Source: Escherichia coli (GTDB lineage: Bacteria; Pseudomonadota; Gammaproteobacteria; Enterobacterales; Enterobacteriaceae). From it: a stretch of DNA of 64,000 nucleotides. Under the pieces are notes generated by a model. That model was given only the letters and a program-made list of their open reading frames with translations. It did not search any database and was not told the DNA's origin. The stretch lies in assembly GCF_003790525.1 (NCBI RefSeq), contig NZ_CP033635.1, one strand, 5' to 3'. A program made the position numbers and the translations under genes. Every line of letters begins with the position of its first letter. Position 1 is the first letter of the stretch. Below are positions 57,892 through 61,442 of this stretch, piece after piece.

Positions 57892-58764
57892 TTACCAGCG
57901 GCCAGACGCGCCGCCACCGCCAGAAGAACCGCCACCTCCGTTAAATCCGCCGCCAGTTGAGCCGCCACCAGAACCGCCGCTGTCTGAATGATAACTTCTA
58001 CCTGATGCTTTTTTCTGTGGGACACATAACCAGGTAAAGACCATAATGATGGTGAAAGCAAAAAAGAAGGAAAATACAGCAATGGAAAAAGTTTGATCGG
58101 AGAACAGGAATAAATCTATAAGATAGACTGTTGAAATACAAACACTGCTTTTAAATGCCCGACAAAAATTATTGCCTTGATGAAAAAACCAGAAAGGGAA
58201 GAACATCACTGCAAATACCCAAAAAATAGCAAAGTAGTAATGATCACTGGAAGACGCTGATTCACTTTCTGAAGGATTAGACGAATATTGGTGTTGTGAA
58301 GTGAGTTGGTTATTCAAAGCGATTATAGCTAATTCTAATCCCTTAGCTAATTTTTGTTTTTTAAAGGCGGGTATCATGATGCTACGGATGATATTGCCAG
58401 CCAGAGCATCGGTTACCTTTTCTTCCAGCCCATAACCTACCTGGATGCGGACAGTACGATCCGACCAGGCAACAATGATCAGTATCCCATCATTACGTTT
58501 GGCATCTCCTAAACGCCAATTGTCAAAAACTCTTGTAGCATATTGTTCAATAGAATCGTCTCCGGTGGATGGCACTATTAATACAGCGACCTGTGCCCGT
58601 GTTTTTTGTGTAATATCCTGCAGCTGTTGTGTTAGTGATTGTTGTTCAGACGTGCTTAAGGTACCAGTAATATCGGTCACCTGTTGGCGCAGCTCCGGCA
58701 CAGCAATTTGCTGGGCAAGCACAGGAAGGCACCATAAAGTGAGTAGAAAAAGGATTATACGCAT
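57892..58764 (-). CDS. ygcG: TPM-domain membrane protein YgcG (third TPM paralogue of the module)
   Basis: ORF 57892..58776 (TTG). ATG 58764 gives 290 aa starting [19 protein letters not shown] (signal peptide). The TPM-like core is TDITGTLS...[29 protein letters not shown]...[20 protein letters not shown]. It is followed by TM segments and a Gly-rich tail [15 protein letters not shown]. Recognised as K-12 YgcG. Confidence 0.9.
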
Positions 58765-58769
58765 AACGA

Positions 58770-59918
58770 TCACCAACGGTCGGATGAACCGCCGCCTCCT
58801 GAAGAACCGCCGCCACCGCGGAAAGAATTTTTCGACGAAGAGCGAGAATGAGCATTACGATTCCCCGTTTTCCTGTTGCTTTTTTCTCCTGACCCCAGCT
58901 TAAGATTGCCAGTAAATTTGGCCACAATGATCAGCAGAACGATGCCAGCAATGGTTATTGGGCCGATAAAATGATCAATTAACCCAATAATTGTTGAGAT
59001 GAATGCTATATCTTTATTACTGGCGAATACCAGGCACCATCCCACAACAATTATCAGCAGCACGACAAACAATGAGTTTCGTTCGGATTGAGAAACCTGC
59101 TGAGTCGTCTTTTGTTTTTTCACTTTAGCGTTTTTATTTTTTGGGGCCAGCATCATAGGAAATACGCGATACATATGAAAAATTACCGCGAGACGCTGCC
59201 AGCAGGTTGCTGCGAAAAATAAACTAAAACAAACGAGCGATACCCGCCGAATGATGACATCATCCTGAAAGAAGAAAAACCAGACCATAGGAGTAATCAT
59301 CGATATCATCCATATGCCAGGCCCGGGACGGCTGGTAAATCGCCAGAGGACAACGATGGCAACGATCATCAGTAATGTCCAGGCAAGACATGGCAGCGAG
59401 CGTTGCGGATTAGCAAACAGATGATTGGCTAAAGCATCCAAAGGGCTAAGATTCGCTTTTATATAGGTAAACTGTGCGATGCCTTCAATTCCCTGCGTTA
59501 ACCCGGAGAAGAGATTATTTTTTTTGAATTCCGGTTGCATATGGTAATGAACAATTTGCGCAGCTTGTTCCGGTGGCAGCATCTCTTTCAGTCCATGCCC
59601 AATCTTCATTGACGCCAGCCCTTCCGGCCAAACGACGAGAATTAAGATACCTTCGCCGTACCGCTTCTCTCCAACGGGTTTCCAGTGATATAACCCGTAG
59701 CTCTGAGAGGCTGCAAGTTTAATGTTTTTGCCCCCTGTGGTCGGCGTAACCAACACGGCCACCTGGAAGTGGTTTTGCTGCTCGAGAGTCTGTAATTGTT
59801 GATTTAAAGCAGTTTGTTCTTCTGTCGTTAATGTCCCGGTTAAGTCAGTTACTGAAGGCAATTGTTCAGCGAATGCCTGGAAACCATATAGCATCAGAAG
59901 TAAGAGAAAAATACGCAT
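58770..59918 (-). CDS. Divergent TPM-domain polytopic membrane protein (second paralogue)
   Basis: 382 aa with a signal peptide [19 protein letters not shown] and a [12 protein letters not shown]...[11 protein letters not shown]...[20 protein letters not shown] core. Several hydrophobic segments follow. The tail is [17 protein letters not shown]. Confidence 0.8.
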
Positions 59919-59932
59919 TTCAATTCCTTTTG

Positions 59933-60826
59933 TTACCAGCGCCCGGAGGCGCCACCGCCGCCAGATGAACCGCCGCCGCCGCGGAAATTGTCATTGTCGA
60001 ATGAAGAGGATGACGATGACGAATAGTGGGAGGAAGAATTACTTCTTGTATGGCGTGATGGCTGGTTGGTATTACGCATCGAATCCCGAACCTTTTTGCC
60101 GAAGGGAGTAAAAGCGATGGCGACAGCCAGGAACGGTGTGGCGAAGCAGAGTAATGTTGCGAGCACTCCCCAGCTTCCGCTGAAACCTGCTATAGGTAAA
60201 ACAAAGGCCAGTACAATAGCTGCGAAGCAAATCAGTCCCAGCGTTTTGATATATCCTCTGGCAGAAATAAACGTCAGTATTATCGCCCAGACTAACAAAG
60301 CCCACCAACCGCTAAAGGGCAAAGGGTGATCGGTCGGTGTTATCGTTGCTGAATTATTCCCCGTCAGGCGACTTTCAATATCGTTGATCCCCTTTTGTAA
60401 ACCACCAGCCAGGTCGCCTTTTTTAAATGCCGGAATAATACTGTTGCGAATAATTTTCCCGGACTGTACATCCGTAATAATACCTTCCAGTCCGTAACCG
60501 ATTTCAATACGCACGGTATGATCCTGCCAGGCGACTAACAGTAGAACGCCATCATCGCGGTCTTTATCACCCGGTTTCCAGCTATCGAATACCCGCGTTG
60601 CGTACTGCTCGATGGTTTCATCGCCTGTTGTATCAACCACTAACACGACCAACTGTGCGTGGTTTTTTTGCGTCAGGGCTTTAATCTGGTTGGTCAGGGT
60701 GTTTACTTCGCTGTTTGTTAATGTGCCGGTTAAGTCATTCACATACTTGGGGGATTCAGGTACTGGAATTTGTGTGGCAAACACAGATGAACAGAAGAAA
60801 GCCATAAGGAAGATAAAATTTCGCAT
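59933..60826 (-). CDS. TPM-domain membrane protein (first paralogue, YgcG-like)
   Basis: ORF 59933..60856. ATG 60826 (ggggaag RBS) gives MRNFIFLMAFFCSSVFATQ (signal peptide). The core is NDLTGTLTNSE...[29 protein letters not shown]...LLLVAWQDHTVRIEIGYGLEG. TM segments and a Ser-rich linker follow. The tail is [17 protein letters not shown]. Confidence 0.85.
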   Translation of the reverse strand: MRNFIFLMAFFCSSVFATQIPVPESPKYVNDLTGTLTNSEVNTLTNQIKALTQKNHAQLVVLVVDTTGDETIEQYATRVFDSWKPGDKDRDDGVLLLVAWQDHTVRIEIGYGLEGIITDVQSGKIIRNSIIPAFKKGDLAGGLQKGINDIESRLTGNNSATITPTDHPLPFSGWWALLVWAIILTFISARGYIKTLGLICFAAIVLAFVLPIAGFSGSWGVLATLLCFATPFLAVAIAFTPFGKKVRDSMRNTNQPSRHTRSNSSSHYSSSSSSSFDNDNFRGGGGSSGGGGASGRW

Positions 60827-60839
60827 AGAACTTCCCCGC

Positions 60840-61442
60840 TTAATGCGCATTAGCATTCTGGCTAAAATCTATTGTTGGGGCTTTACTTACTGCGGTGACA
60901 TCATCCGGCAAATAATTTTTCTTTGGTGTGTAATCCATGACCTTTGCGGTTAATACAGCGGGGAATTTGCGGATAGTGACATTATATTGTTCAATGGCTT
61001 TAATATATCTTCCTCGCGCAACGGCAATTCTATTTTCACTTCCTTCGAGCTGTACCATTAAGTTTTGATAGAGTTCCTGAGCTTTTAACTCAGGGTAACG
61101 TTCACTAATTATCGTTAACTGACCGAGAGTGCGAGACACCTGCGCCTGGGCTTGTTGCCAGGCTTGTAATTTTTGCGCATCTCCCGGAGCTTGCTGAAGA
61201 TCGCTACTGGCGCGATTAGCCTGGCTACGTGCCAATGTTACGGCTTCCAGTACCTCTTGTTCATGGCTAGAATAACCTTTAATACTGGCGACAAGATTAG
61301 GAATAAGATCGGCGCGACGTTGATATTGATTCAATACCTCAGACCAGGAGGCGTTAACCTGCTCATCATAGGTTTGAATATCGTTATATCCACAGCCTGA
61401 TAAATTGACAATAAATATAATTACGATGAATATCCTGAGCAT
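60840..61442 (-). CDS. lemA: LemA-family protein (probable lipoprotein)
   Basis: 200 aa. The N-terminus MLRIFIVIIFIVNLSGC has a lipobox. The body (YNDIQTYDEQVNASWSEVLNQYQRRADLIPNLV...RIAVARGRYIKAIEQYNVTIRKFP) matches the LemA family pattern. Confidence 0.85.
   Translation of the reverse strand: MLRIFIVIIFIVNLSGCGYNDIQTYDEQVNASWSEVLNQYQRRADLIPNLVASIKGYSSHEQEVLEAVTLARSQANRASSDLQQAPGDAQKLQAWQQAQAQVSRTLGQLTIISERYPELKAQELYQNLMVQLEGSENRIAVARGRYIKAIEQYNVTIRKFPAVLTAKVMDYTPKKNYLPDDVTAVSKAPTIDFSQNANAH

Follow-up and report, generated by a model that had tools for sequence, protein, structure and literature searches.

The window, a 64,000-nucleotide stretch of the Escherichia coli SMS-3-5 genome, contains four intact, co-oriented open reading frames at positions 57892-61442 of its minus strand. 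The first, lemA (60840-61442, minus strand), encodes a 200-residue LemA-family lipoprotein (PF04011, E=1e-48) and is followed by three genes for proteins with a TPM domain (PF04536): TPM1 (59933-60826, minus strand), a YgcG/BA41-type protein of 297 residues beginning MRNF (E=8e-41); TPM2 (58770-59918, minus strand), a divergent paralogue of 382 residues (E=4e-22); and TPM3 (57892-58764, minus strand), a 290-residue protein beginning MRII that is the counterpart of K-12 ygcG (E=9e-38). Successive genes are separated by 13, 14 and 5 nt, and queE (TIGR04322, E=1e-110) is transcribed divergently from the module, 172 nt away; these coordinates and spacings bear out an initial annotation of this DNA. 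The operon-like arrangement described there was likewise supported, both by the short same-strand gaps and by a search of the module for internal terminators and promoters, in which no convincing terminator or strong promoter was found and only a single weak terminator-like site was returned, within TPM2. The module was correctly described as AT-rich relative to its neighbours, but the deficit is modest: its G+C content is 45.2%, not 30%, and compares with values of 50.5% in eno, 51.8% in queE and 50.0% in the window as a whole. When compared with the PADLOC phage-defence models, none of the four proteins produced a match at E<=0.01.

Control region and terminator

The divergent control region between queE and lemA (61443-61614) spans 172 nt at 34% G+C. 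Its queE-proximal ~96 nt are almost invariant in an alignment with K-12, O157 and EC0885, and the promoter-proximal half in K-12 has diverged from that of SMS-3-5. Within the region lie a two-codon upstream open reading frame, ATG TTT TAA (61468-61476, minus strand), the ATG of which corresponds to the start codon of K-12 yqcG, and a PhoP-box-like repeat (61525-61541), which by itself is not above chance; a simple promoter scan upstream of lemA revealed no good sigma-70 site. In K-12, phosphorylated PhoP binds to the 300-bp stretch upstream of queE and deletion of yqcG raises queE expression (PMC4974570), and a ChIP peak of sigma-S RNA polymerase has been located in the queE intergenic region (PMC4447067); the RefSeq product name for YqcG is 'cell envelope stress response protein'. 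We infer that lemA, TPM1, TPM2 and TPM3 form one operon, with a stress-responsive control region that would be shared divergently with queE.

At the other end of the module, a G+C hairpin, CAGCCTTCGGGCTG (57860-57873), belongs to a bidirectional terminator common to the module and eno. The hairpin has been duplicated as the target-site repeat of an IS4 element, the second copy lying at 56420-56433, and on the operon strand the copy at 57860-57873 has lost its T-run to IS4.

Predicted anatomy of LemA and the TPM proteins

The lemA product covers the full Pfam LemA model (positions 1-149) at 165.4 bits, against a cut-off of 26.2, and matches the LemA of T. maritima (PDB 2ETD, E=1e-32). Its N-terminus comprises a signal peptide with the lipobox LSGC at residues 14-17, which leaves a mature protein beginning CGYND, followed by a helical-bundle domain; the family match and the lipobox together uphold the earlier designation of a LemA-family lipoprotein. 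The lipobox and the residues adjoining it, L(S/T)GC followed by GYN, are found in 107 of 109 close LemA orthologues (at least 51% identity). LemA is predicted to be a lipid-anchored helical bundle facing the periplasm. Residue +2 is glycine, which does not discriminate between an inner- and an outer-membrane location. Comparison of lemA with its counterparts in Nissle and E. albertii gives dN/dS values of 0.09 and 0.03, respectively. Assignment of LemA to the MamQ equivalog family (NCBIfam NF040966) was considered and rejected, as the score of 91.4 bits falls below the cut-off of 250 and marks only a LemA-family relative.

All three TPM proteins exceed the PF04536 (TPM_phosphatase) cut-off of 22.1 bits, scoring 139.4 (TPM1), 79.1 (TPM2) and 129.6 (TPM3), have the alpha-beta-alpha sandwich fold of the TPM domain, and are 39-54% identical to one another within it. 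Each has an N-terminus resembling a signal peptide (VFA|TQ, AFA|EQ and VLA|QQ). TPM1 is predicted to consist of a cleavable signal peptide, a periplasmic TPM domain, three hydrophobic helices, a linker rich in Ser, Arg and Lys, and a Gly-rich C-terminal motif; TPM3 likewise has a signal peptide, a TPM domain, three hydrophobic helices and the conserved C-terminal motif. The tails of all three paralogues are of the type GGGGxxGGGGASGxW, which places them among the long, YgcG/BA41-type TPM proteins (TPM-A). This architecture of signal peptide, TPM domain, transmembrane helices, Ser/Lys-rich linker and Gly-rich tail, on which Pfam and sequence features agree, is that originally proposed, and the long blocks said to be shared by the first and third paralogues, ending (E/Q)(I/V)GYGLE, together with IPAFKK, were confirmed in TPM1 and TPM3 and are absent from TPM2.

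From these features the TPM domains are predicted to be periplasmic, anchored by three helices (TPM1 and TPM3) or about five (TPM2), and the disordered, basic, Ser-rich linker and the GGGGxxGGGGASGxW end would be cytoplasmic. In an AlphaFold2 (AF2) model of TPM1, the C-terminal motif forms a beta-strand with a pLDDT of about 95; if this strand is docked on the protein's own periplasmic TPM domain, the model conflicts with the cytoplasmic tail expected from the positive-inside rule.

The conserved C-terminal motif is encoded by three copies of a repeat (family D1) at 57892-57940, 58770-58818 and 59933-59981 on the minus strand, with 74-84% DNA identity; the motif has been maintained across the paralogues despite synonymous differences. 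The repeats are also a substrate for deletions between paralogues: in O157 AR-0428, TPM2 has been deleted and the junction lies inside the tail-coding repeat.

The initial annotation had described the middle paralogue as diverged in its TPM core and endowed with extra helices. Both features were recovered, but TPM2 is more than diverged. It retains only 23 of 50 conserved TPM-A columns, 27 having been lost, compared with 36-39 of 50 in its paralogues, and R88, E96, D101, Y50 and R53 are among the missing residues. The protein comprises a signal peptide, this degenerate TPM domain, about five hydrophobic helices (also reported from AF2), a Lys-rich internal loop (residues 241-277) and the conserved C-terminal motif. 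Full-length TPM2 orthologues were found in Escherichia only, and its membrane part gave 11 matches among 1.84 billion representatives; in the Klebsiella homologue the TPM domain is gone altogether, whereas the membrane part and tail are retained. TPM2 has a dN/dS of 0.24-0.29, and TPM3 one of 0.22-0.32.

An Escherichia version of a widespread module

The survey covered 66 proteobacterial lemA loci with enough downstream DNA. A TPM-A gene lies within 150 nt of lemA in 60 of them, 44 of which have a gap between -4 and +15 nt, and the tail motif with its final W is present in 58 of 60 lemA-adjacent TPM-A proteins from other Proteobacteria. A short (~165-residue) cytoplasmic BA42-like protein, TPM-B, which matches BA42 at E=1e-12, is encoded next in 56 of the 66 loci. 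TPM-B is absent from the SMS-3-5 module, where TPM1 precedes two more long paralogues, and also from the lemA loci of Klebsiella, Erwinia and Pseudomonas, in which one long TPM protein suffices. By gene content and order, the module is the Escherichia version of a widespread envelope module of lemA plus a YgcG/BA41-type TPM gene, with three tandem TPM-A genes and no TPM-B. Across Proteobacteria the anatomy is fixed, in that the LemA lipoprotein is joined by a long TPM protein whose C-terminal peptide is near-invariant and, in most cases, by a short cytoplasmic one. The survey supports the view that LemA-TPM neighbourhoods are widespread, and the literature searched yielded no established function for them, as had been stated; gene pairs of this kind count among the commoner bacterial envelope modules to which no function has been assigned.

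In a set of 5,426 complete genomes of E. coli, 1,451 (27%) carry lemA, 1,102 carry TPM2 and 1,100 (about 20%) carry the whole set of four, so that TPM2 is almost never found without the others; 73% lack lemA, and the module is dispensable. The EC0885 type carries lemA and TPM1 only. At the same queE-eno site, E. albertii has the same four genes in the same order, K. quasipneumoniae has lemA and one TPM gene, and in K. spallanzanii lemA is accompanied by a TPM gene and the TPM-less TPM2 homologue.

K-12 was expected to have the order queE-ygcG-eno, with ygcG the only one of the four genes, and this proved to be the case; the site additionally carries a 46-codon gene, yqcG (b4682), that had gone unmentioned, and lemA, TPM1 and TPM2 are missing beside ygcG (b2778). 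K-12 DNA gives a blastn alignment of 291 nt (87%) that runs through the start codon of lemA, in frame, and the local alignment score is 37, compared with 19.2 +/- 2.3 in shuffles. The gene yqcG is a relic of the 5' end of lemA, comprising the leader and about codons 2-30 of lemA but no lipobox; in other reduced strains it is frameshifted. K-12 ygcG has 91.6% nucleotide identity to TPM3 from codon 60 on, its first 60 codons representing a deeply diverged allele in which synonymous sites are saturated. In a phylogenetic tree, K-12 YgcG falls in the TPM3/YgcG clade and TPM1 beside the Klebsiella gene.

Because E. albertii and Klebsiella have the module at this very site, and because yqcG is a lemA relic, the polarity is one of loss rather than gain, with an ancestral module at queE-eno that has been repeatedly reduced within E. 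coli. The earlier description of the genes as variable content therefore stands with respect to their patchy distribution, but not if it implies gain. That the cluster is an accessory island gained by horizontal transfer in SMS-3-5 and related strains, as that description implied, could be argued from the G+C content (45% against 50-52% in the flanks), the patchiness within E. coli, the adjoining IS4 and an unusually high divergence between E. coli haplotypes (5-14% in DNA). However, the shared site and order in E. albertii, and in part in Klebsiella, and the lemA relic at the matching position in K-12 speak against acquisition; apart from the IS4 target duplication, the module borders carry no integrase, tRNA or direct repeat; the IS4 arrived independently, as its own 14-bp target duplication within the terminator shows; and the module is never on a plasmid (0 of 5,424 places). 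We consider an island very improbable.

A further reading is that the cluster in SMS-3-5 is itself a decaying remnant that is functionless now. TPM1 carries a RefSeq pseudogene flag in SMS-3-5, Nissle and EC0885; a real TPM1 nonsense codon accompanies the loss of TPM2 in O157 AR-0428; the ygcG of DH10B carries a nonsense mutation; lemA has been lost from most E. coli; and IS4 parts the operon from the terminator T-run. Decay of this kind is nevertheless hard to credit in SMS-3-5, where the four reading frames are intact, the tail motif survives in all three paralogues, and all four genes show dN/dS values of 0.03-0.32, indicative of purifying selection. Furthermore, in three genomes TPM1 stays collinear through to the final residue that defines the family, and its designation as a pseudogene therefore looks wrong and resembles an annotation artefact. 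Our confidence in the identity of the module and in its history of ancestry and loss is high.

That K-12 carries only a relic explains the silence of E. coli genetics on this module. YqcG is accordingly to be read as a gene remnant and YgcG as an orphan third paralogue, and as the module is intact in Nissle 1917, UTI89 and SMS-3-5, beside the PhoPQ-controlled queE, its function, topology and partners are directly testable.

Proposed function

Our best guess is that the module encodes a scaffold that is induced by stress, has no enzymatic role and lies at the periplasmic face of the inner membrane. The TPM ectodomains would serve there as docking or assembly modules, by analogy with Psb32/TLP18.3, AscF and MOLO-1, non-enzymatic precedents within the TPM family (PMC11237479, PMC13456599), and LemA would be a membrane-proximal scaffold, a role in which LemA-like domains have been described (bioRxiv 10.64898/2026.07.15.738315). 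TPM2 would be a degenerate 'pseudo-TPM' subunit in which the membrane part and tail are what count, from which it would follow that the three paralogues work as a hetero-oligomer, acting in envelope, stationary-phase or PhoPQ stress. Such a hetero-oligomer is plausible given the near-absence of TPM2 without the other genes and the purifying selection on all paralogues. Taken alone, this mechanism is tentative, and the odds lean against it; for identity, evolution and mechanism together, we estimate a probability of about 0.55.

The Pfam name 'TPM_phosphatase' invites a different reading, in which the TPM proteins act as phosphatases or nucleotidases in the periplasm and the operon functions in enzymatic phosphate or nucleotide scavenging or in signalling. 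TPM1 and TPM3 do retain most of the conserved charged residues of the TPM family, as might be expected of an enzymatic or ligand-binding role. The periplasm is not known to contain an ATP pool, which counts against this reading, as do the lost residues of TPM2 and the TPM-less Klebsiella homologue that keeps membrane part and tail. No catalytic or metal site, moreover, is shared by the family as a whole: the faces that carry metal sites are opposite ones in different members, and in AscF neither metal nor nucleotide is bound (PMC13456599). Such activities as have been reported are weak, and the competing view assigns the proteins a role in assembly or as chaperones (PMC11237479). An enzymatic operon is in our judgement quite unlikely.

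It is also conceivable, though unlikely, that the paralogues are redundant or condition-specific isoforms, each pairing separately with LemA. They share one architecture and the same tail, and a single long TPM protein accompanies LemA in Klebsiella, Pseudomonas, Erwinia and, as TPM1, in EC0885-type strains. Against this, TPM2 is kept almost exclusively with all the others (1,100 of 1,102 genomes); the paralogues are old, being common to E. albertii, and have diverged to 39-54% identity in the TPM domain; and the degeneracy of that domain in TPM2 means that it cannot be a simple isoform.

One further reading can be offered as a long shot. The GGGGxxGGGGASGxW peptide might be a docking strand that completes or extends a TPM beta-sheet, in which case the paralogues could be chained tail-to-TPM across the membrane, or elsewhere to the cytoplasmic BA42-like protein, and the chain might couple a periplasmic state sensed with LemA to the cytoplasm. 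If so, the module would represent a novel type of envelope-stress transducer, and one that K-12 has lost.

Comparison with known systems

One of the closest systems is the K-12 yqcG-ygcG pair, which shares the chromosomal site, the queE-side control region and, in ygcG, the TPM3 counterpart, but in which lemA is reduced to a relic and TPM1 and TPM2 are lacking. In Bizionia argentinensis, the genes for BA41, BA42 and LemA are presumably neighbours. Components of the canonical lemA/TPM-A/TPM-B triad have been solved (T. maritima LemA, 2ETD; B. argentinensis BA41, 5ANP, and BA42, 4OA3/2LT2), and the SMS-3-5 module resembles this triad in having lemA a few nt upstream of a YgcG/BA41-type gene, a LemA lipobox and a C-terminal motif ending in W; it differs in possessing three long paralogues and no BA42-type gene, TPM2 being degenerate and carrying two extra helices. 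In solved structures, the tail of BA42 itself and a strand of AscG complete or extend the TPM beta-sheet, and are the analogues for the putative docking strand.

Two further LemA-family proteins are helical bundles at a membrane surface: MamQ, which functions in magnetosome membrane biogenesis (E=5e-26, far under the equivalog cut-off), and the LemA-like domain of mycobacterial ML0451c, which has been modelled at the cytoplasmic face, whereas E. coli LemA is a lipoprotein predicted to face the periplasm. On the TPM side, B. subtilis YdjH belongs to the pspA-like ydjFGHL operon and has been proposed to be chaperone-like (PMC11237479); its partners are PspA and a band-7 protein rather than LemA. 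Psb32/TLP18.3/LMTP1 (photosystem II assembly and repair), AscF-AscG (the mycobacterial CIII-CIV supercomplex) and MOLO-1 (an auxiliary subunit of the acetylcholine receptor), from which the docking role is drawn, are only 12-16% identical and have neither a LemA partner nor the Gly-rich, W-terminal tail that distinguishes the proteins encoded beside lemA.

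Organization of the queE-eno interval

The window matches the chromosome of E. coli SMS-3-5 (NC_010498.1) at 100% identity. Four minus-strand open reading frames fill positions 57892-61442 exactly and are separated by gaps of 13, 14 and 5 nt, as claimed in the initial annotation: lemA (60840-61442; 200 aa), TPM1 (59933-60826; 297 aa, starting MRNF), TPM2 (58770-59918; 382 aa) and TPM3 (57892-58764; 290 aa, starting MRII). Pfam bore out the LemA and TPM assignments for all four proteins (LemA, E=1e-48; TPM_phosphatase, E=8e-41, 4e-22 and 9e-38, respectively), and queE (TIGR04322, E=1e-110) lies divergently, 172 nt from lemA. 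The identical sequence blocks ascribed to the first and third paralogues were found in TPM1 and TPM3 and are absent from TPM2. The description of the region as AT-rich holds in direction, G+C of the module (45.2%) being lower than that of eno (50.5%) or queE (51.8%), but the difference is modest. No Rfam family matched within 56300-62400 at E<=1 and no PADLOC model was matched by the four module proteins; a Pfam 'YxzE-like bacteriocin' match on the TPM1 tail scored 24.7 bits, below the cut-off of 40, and was rejected as an artefact of the Gly-rich composition there. RefSeq assigns the first gene product to the LemA family and the others to the TPM domain-containing proteins, the association of LemA with TPM is mentioned only in passing in the literature searched, and a literature search by O157 locus tags returned nothing relevant; the LemA-TPM neighbourhood is an association already known, uncharacterised.

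On the eno side, the bidirectional terminator that serves eno and ygcG is interrupted, precisely at its G+C hairpin, by a 1,426-bp IS4 element (56434-57859) whose transposase gene (56447-57793, minus strand) points the same way as the lemA operon. The 14-bp hairpin, CAGCCTTCGGGCTG, now occurs twice, once on each side of the element (56420-56433 and 57860-57873). Because the copy next to the operon has lost its T-run, transcription of the operon may read through into IS4. Directly past queE (62372-63962), SMS-3-5 carries genes for a sucrose-6-phosphate hydrolase and a cscR-like regulator of the LacI family. At this position AZ159, a strain with the reduced haplotype, also has a LacI-family gene; O157 and Nissle have ygcE, which in K-12 and EC0885 is accompanied by a CRISPR array.

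Predicted topology of the TPM proteins and degeneration of TPM2

TPM1, TPM2 and TPM3 each begin with a signal-peptide-like N-terminus bearing an AXA-type site (VFA-TQ, AFA-EQ and VLA-QQ, respectively), followed by the TPM domain and then by hydrophobic helices, three in TPM1 and TPM3 and about five in TPM2 as judged by hydropathy and AF2 helices. Lys and Arg are abundant in the loops and in the linker after the last helix (8 K/R in the linkers of TPM1 and TPM2 and likewise 8 in TPM2 loop 241-277); by the positive-inside rule, the linker and Gly-rich end are therefore predicted to be cytoplasmic and the TPM domain periplasmic, which is the topology proposed initially.

TPM2 retains 23 of the 50 columns conserved at 80% or more in TPM-A, the long YgcG/BA41-type TPM proteins, as against 36-39 in TPM1, TPM3, K-12 YgcG and the Klebsiella protein; the losses include R88, E96, D101, Y50 and R53 (alignment-column numbers). 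The queE-eno interval of Klebsiella spallanzanii holds lemA, a 294-aa TPM gene and then a TPM2 homologue (5001-5858 of that locus, L094) which is without a TPM domain and keeps the signal peptide, polytopic membrane part, Lys-rich loop and conserved tail. The degenerate columns of TPM2, together with this TPM-less homologue, point to the membrane domain and tail as the selected parts of the protein. Full-length TPM2 orthologues occur in Escherichia only, the next matches falling from 79% to 34% identity, and the membrane part gave only 11 matches in a set of 1.84 billion representative proteins. In a tree built from the TPM domains by neighbour joining, TPM1 clusters with the Klebsiella protein and TPM3 with K-12 YgcG, and TPM2 occupies a long branch. 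The same interval contains lemA and a single 296-aa TPM gene in K. quasipneumoniae, and lemA and three TPM genes (302, 378 and 306 aa) in E. albertii. In K. spallanzanii, the 1.6 kb between the TPM2 homologue and eno translates to repeated 'FIPAGAGNT / GLSPLARGT' and looks like a CRISPR array.

LemA is a predicted lipoprotein

LemA, which matches the solved Thermotoga maritima LemA structure (2ETD) with E=1e-32, has the lipobox LSGC and a mature N-terminus of CGYND. L(S/T)GC followed by GYN was present in 107 of the 109 closest full-length relatives (51-99% identity), which span Escherichia, Klebsiella, Brenneria, Pseudomonas, Burkholderia and Stenotrophomonas; this argues that the LemA subfamily is a periplasm-facing lipoprotein, a property that goes beyond existing annotation. 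Because position +2 is Gly, not Asp, an inner- versus outer-membrane location of LemA is not readable from the sequence; Gly at +2 has been reported to keep artificial lipoproteins in the inner membrane.

K-12 retains a relic of the module

It had been claimed that K-12 keeps only ygcG; lemA, TPM1 and TPM2 are indeed not intact there, but the site is not empty. In a blastn comparison with the window, the K-12 alignment extends from queE, through the spacer between the genes, to 33 nt inside lemA (87% over 291 nt). In strains carrying lemA, a two-codon uORF, ATG TTT TAA (61468-61476, minus strand), precedes the lemA start by 31 nt; in a four-strain alignment its ATG is the K-12 yqcG start codon, and a 1-nt deletion at the lemA start brings the yqcG frame into that of lemA. 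Codons ~12-41 of yqcG (46 codons) align in frame to lemA codons ~2-30, with loss of the lipobox, at a local alignment score of 37 as compared with 19.2 +/- 2.3 (maximum 28) for 500 shuffles, and yqcG is spaced 13 nt from ygcG, the same distance as lemA from TPM1. K-12 ygcG corresponds to TPM3 from codon 60 on (91.6% DNA identity; common clade in the TPM tree). Its first 60 codons, which have ~40% protein identity to TPM1 or TPM3 and saturated synonymous sites, are on this comparison a deeply diverged allele. By these alignments K-12 yqcG is a lemA relic and ygcG an orphan third paralogue, both assignments going beyond existing annotation; no mention of yqcG together with LemA was found in the literature searched. 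The yqcG frame is shifted in other reduced strains and is thus not conserved as a gene; orphan ygcG gave a dN/dS of 0.30 between K-12 and AZ159.

Variation and selection within E. coli

Comparison of the queE-eno interval across 5,426 complete E. coli genomes confirmed that lemA and its paralogues are variable content: lemA (at least 80% covered) was present in 1,451 genomes, TPM2 in 1,102 and the whole four-gene stretch in 1,100, the majority form being the K-12 type, yqcG plus ygcG. Carriers of the module include Nissle 1917, UTI89, an O145 strain and some O157:H7 strains, and no match to the four-gene stretch was plasmid-borne in these genomes. Retention of TPM2 with the other three genes in 1,100 of 1,102 genomes is as expected if TPM2 depends on them.

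Several strains carry altered loci. O157 AR-0428 has a TPM1 nonsense mutation (TTA to TGA, codon 225), the only real one among the genomes examined, and has lost TPM2 by a deletion whose junction lies inside the conserved tail-coding repeat. In EC0885, lemA and a full-length TPM1 are followed by an unrelated 120-aa hydrophobic ORF (3103-3465 of that locus, L004) replacing TPM2 and TPM3; this third E. coli haplotype is 86% identical to SMS-3-5 across lemA and TPM1. An O15:H12 strain has IS1 across the module site.

Purifying selection acts on each of the four genes, less strongly on TPM2 and TPM3. Nei-Gojobori dN/dS for SMS-3-5 against Nissle and against E. albertii, respectively, was 0.09 and 0.03 for lemA, 0.12 and 0.17 for TPM1, 0.29 and 0.24 for TPM2, and 0.22 and 0.32 for TPM3. 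In SMS-3-5, Nissle and EC0885, RefSeq/PGAP flags TPM1 (CDS 60155-60826) as a pseudogene ('incomplete; missing C-terminus'). The ORF at 59933-60826 is uninterrupted to the terminal motif of the family, and since TPM1 is collinear up to its final residue in these three strains and E. albertii, the label looks like an annotation artefact. Whole-module haplotypes differ by 5-14% in DNA, and eno is nearly identical. TPM3 falls into two old allele classes; the O157 allele (L003 2533-3447) is 95% identical over the TPM domain to that of E. albertii (L008 8682-9602) and only 74% identical to the SMS-3-5/Nissle allele, which suggests trans-species polymorphism or introgression.

Regulatory context

RefSeq gives the product of YqcG as a cell envelope stress response protein, and Hemm et al. 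2010 reportedly found YqcG to be induced by envelope stress. Envelope-stress induction of YqcG rests on these two and on a secondary citation in PMC4447067. In K-12, phosphorylated PhoP binds to the first 300 bp upstream of queE and to the 300 bp that follow, and queE expression rises when yqcG is deleted (PMC4974570); ChIP-seq of sigma-S RNA polymerase shows a peak between queE and ygcG (PMC4447067). SMS-3-5 and K-12 barely differ in the ~96 nt of the intergenic region next to queE, and have diverged in the part next to lemA. A PhoP-box-like direct repeat, TGTTACaggcaGGTTTA (61525-61541, minus strand, 2 mismatches), lies in the invariant part and within the segment bound by phosphorylated PhoP in K-12; as evidence by itself it was rejected, the 13 such sites in the window being not above chance (14.8 expected). 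No strong terminator was found inside the four-gene cluster. The regulatory data come from K-12, the PhoP-like repeat is at chance frequency and a promoter scan upstream of lemA gave nothing convincing, so it is by inference that the four-gene operon would be induced by PhoPQ, sigma-S or envelope stress.

The C-terminal motif of the long TPM proteins

The matches listed for the wider family comprised 80 proteobacterial lemA loci from outside the Enterobacteriaceae (relatives at ~50% identity), 66 of them with at least 2 kb downstream of lemA. Among these, a long TPM gene (~280-330 aa) lay within 150 nt of lemA in 60 of 66 loci, the gap being -4 to +15 nt in 44 of the 60, and a second, short TPM gene (~165 aa) came next in 56 of 66. 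The short protein (TPM-B) has neither signal peptide nor hydrophobic segment, ends in ..P(V/L)(V/L)L and matches BA42 of Bizionia argentinensis (E=1e-12); the long one matches BA41 of the same organism. The ordinary module among the matches listed is therefore lemA, a BA41-like gene and a BA42-like gene.

Trp was the last residue in 58 of the 60 long TPM proteins adjoining lemA among these matches, and their final 16 residues follow S-G-G-G-G-x-F-G-G-G-G-A-S-G-x-W, with most positions kept in 51-59 of 60. All three E. coli paralogues retain the motif; their tail-coding DNA is only 74-84% identical, which indicates conservation at the protein level. This near-invariant C-terminal peptide goes beyond existing annotation. 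In the AF2 model of TPM1, residues 288-296 form a beta-strand (pLDDT ~95) after a linker below 50. TPM sheets can be completed by a foreign strand, as by the own tail of BA42 and by AscG in AscF (PMC13456599). A tail docked on its own periplasmic TPM domain would contradict the predicted cytoplasmic tail, and this modelled strand, at odds with the predicted topology, would be the main lead for something new. Completion of the TPM-B sheet by the TPM-A tail was also considered and is weakened, because BA42 closes its sheet with its own tail (PMC13456599) and TPM-B aligns with BA42 through its own conserved C-terminus. Nor did the motif Phe track TPM-B cleanly (46 Phe to 8 non-Phe with TPM-B and 2 to 2 without, few cases among the matches listed).

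A proposed role at the inner membrane and comparison with the ordinary triad

In the best-supported reading, the module would be stress-induced and non-enzymatic and would act on the periplasmic side of the inner membrane, with TPM domains serving, by analogy with studied systems, as docking modules on membrane complexes. Such docking is known for Psb32/TLP18.3 on photosystem II, AscF in CIII-CIV and MOLO-1 on its receptor (PMC11237479, PMC13456599); TPM proteins have also been proposed as chaperone-like partners of PspA (PMC11237479), and LemA-like domains are helical bundles proposed as membrane scaffolds (bioRxiv 10.64898/2026.07.15.738315). Alternatively, TPM1 and TPM3 may be enzymes, with phosphatase or nucleotidase activity. 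A hetero-oligomer would be consistent both with the degeneration of TPM2 and with its co-retention with the other genes.

Existing annotation does not cover the Escherichia variant as such, with its triplicated long TPM gene, no BA42-like gene and a putative pseudo-TPM subunit. Compared with the ordinary triad, the Enterobacterales and Pseudomonas loci lack the BA42-like third gene, and Escherichia has expanded the BA41-like second gene.
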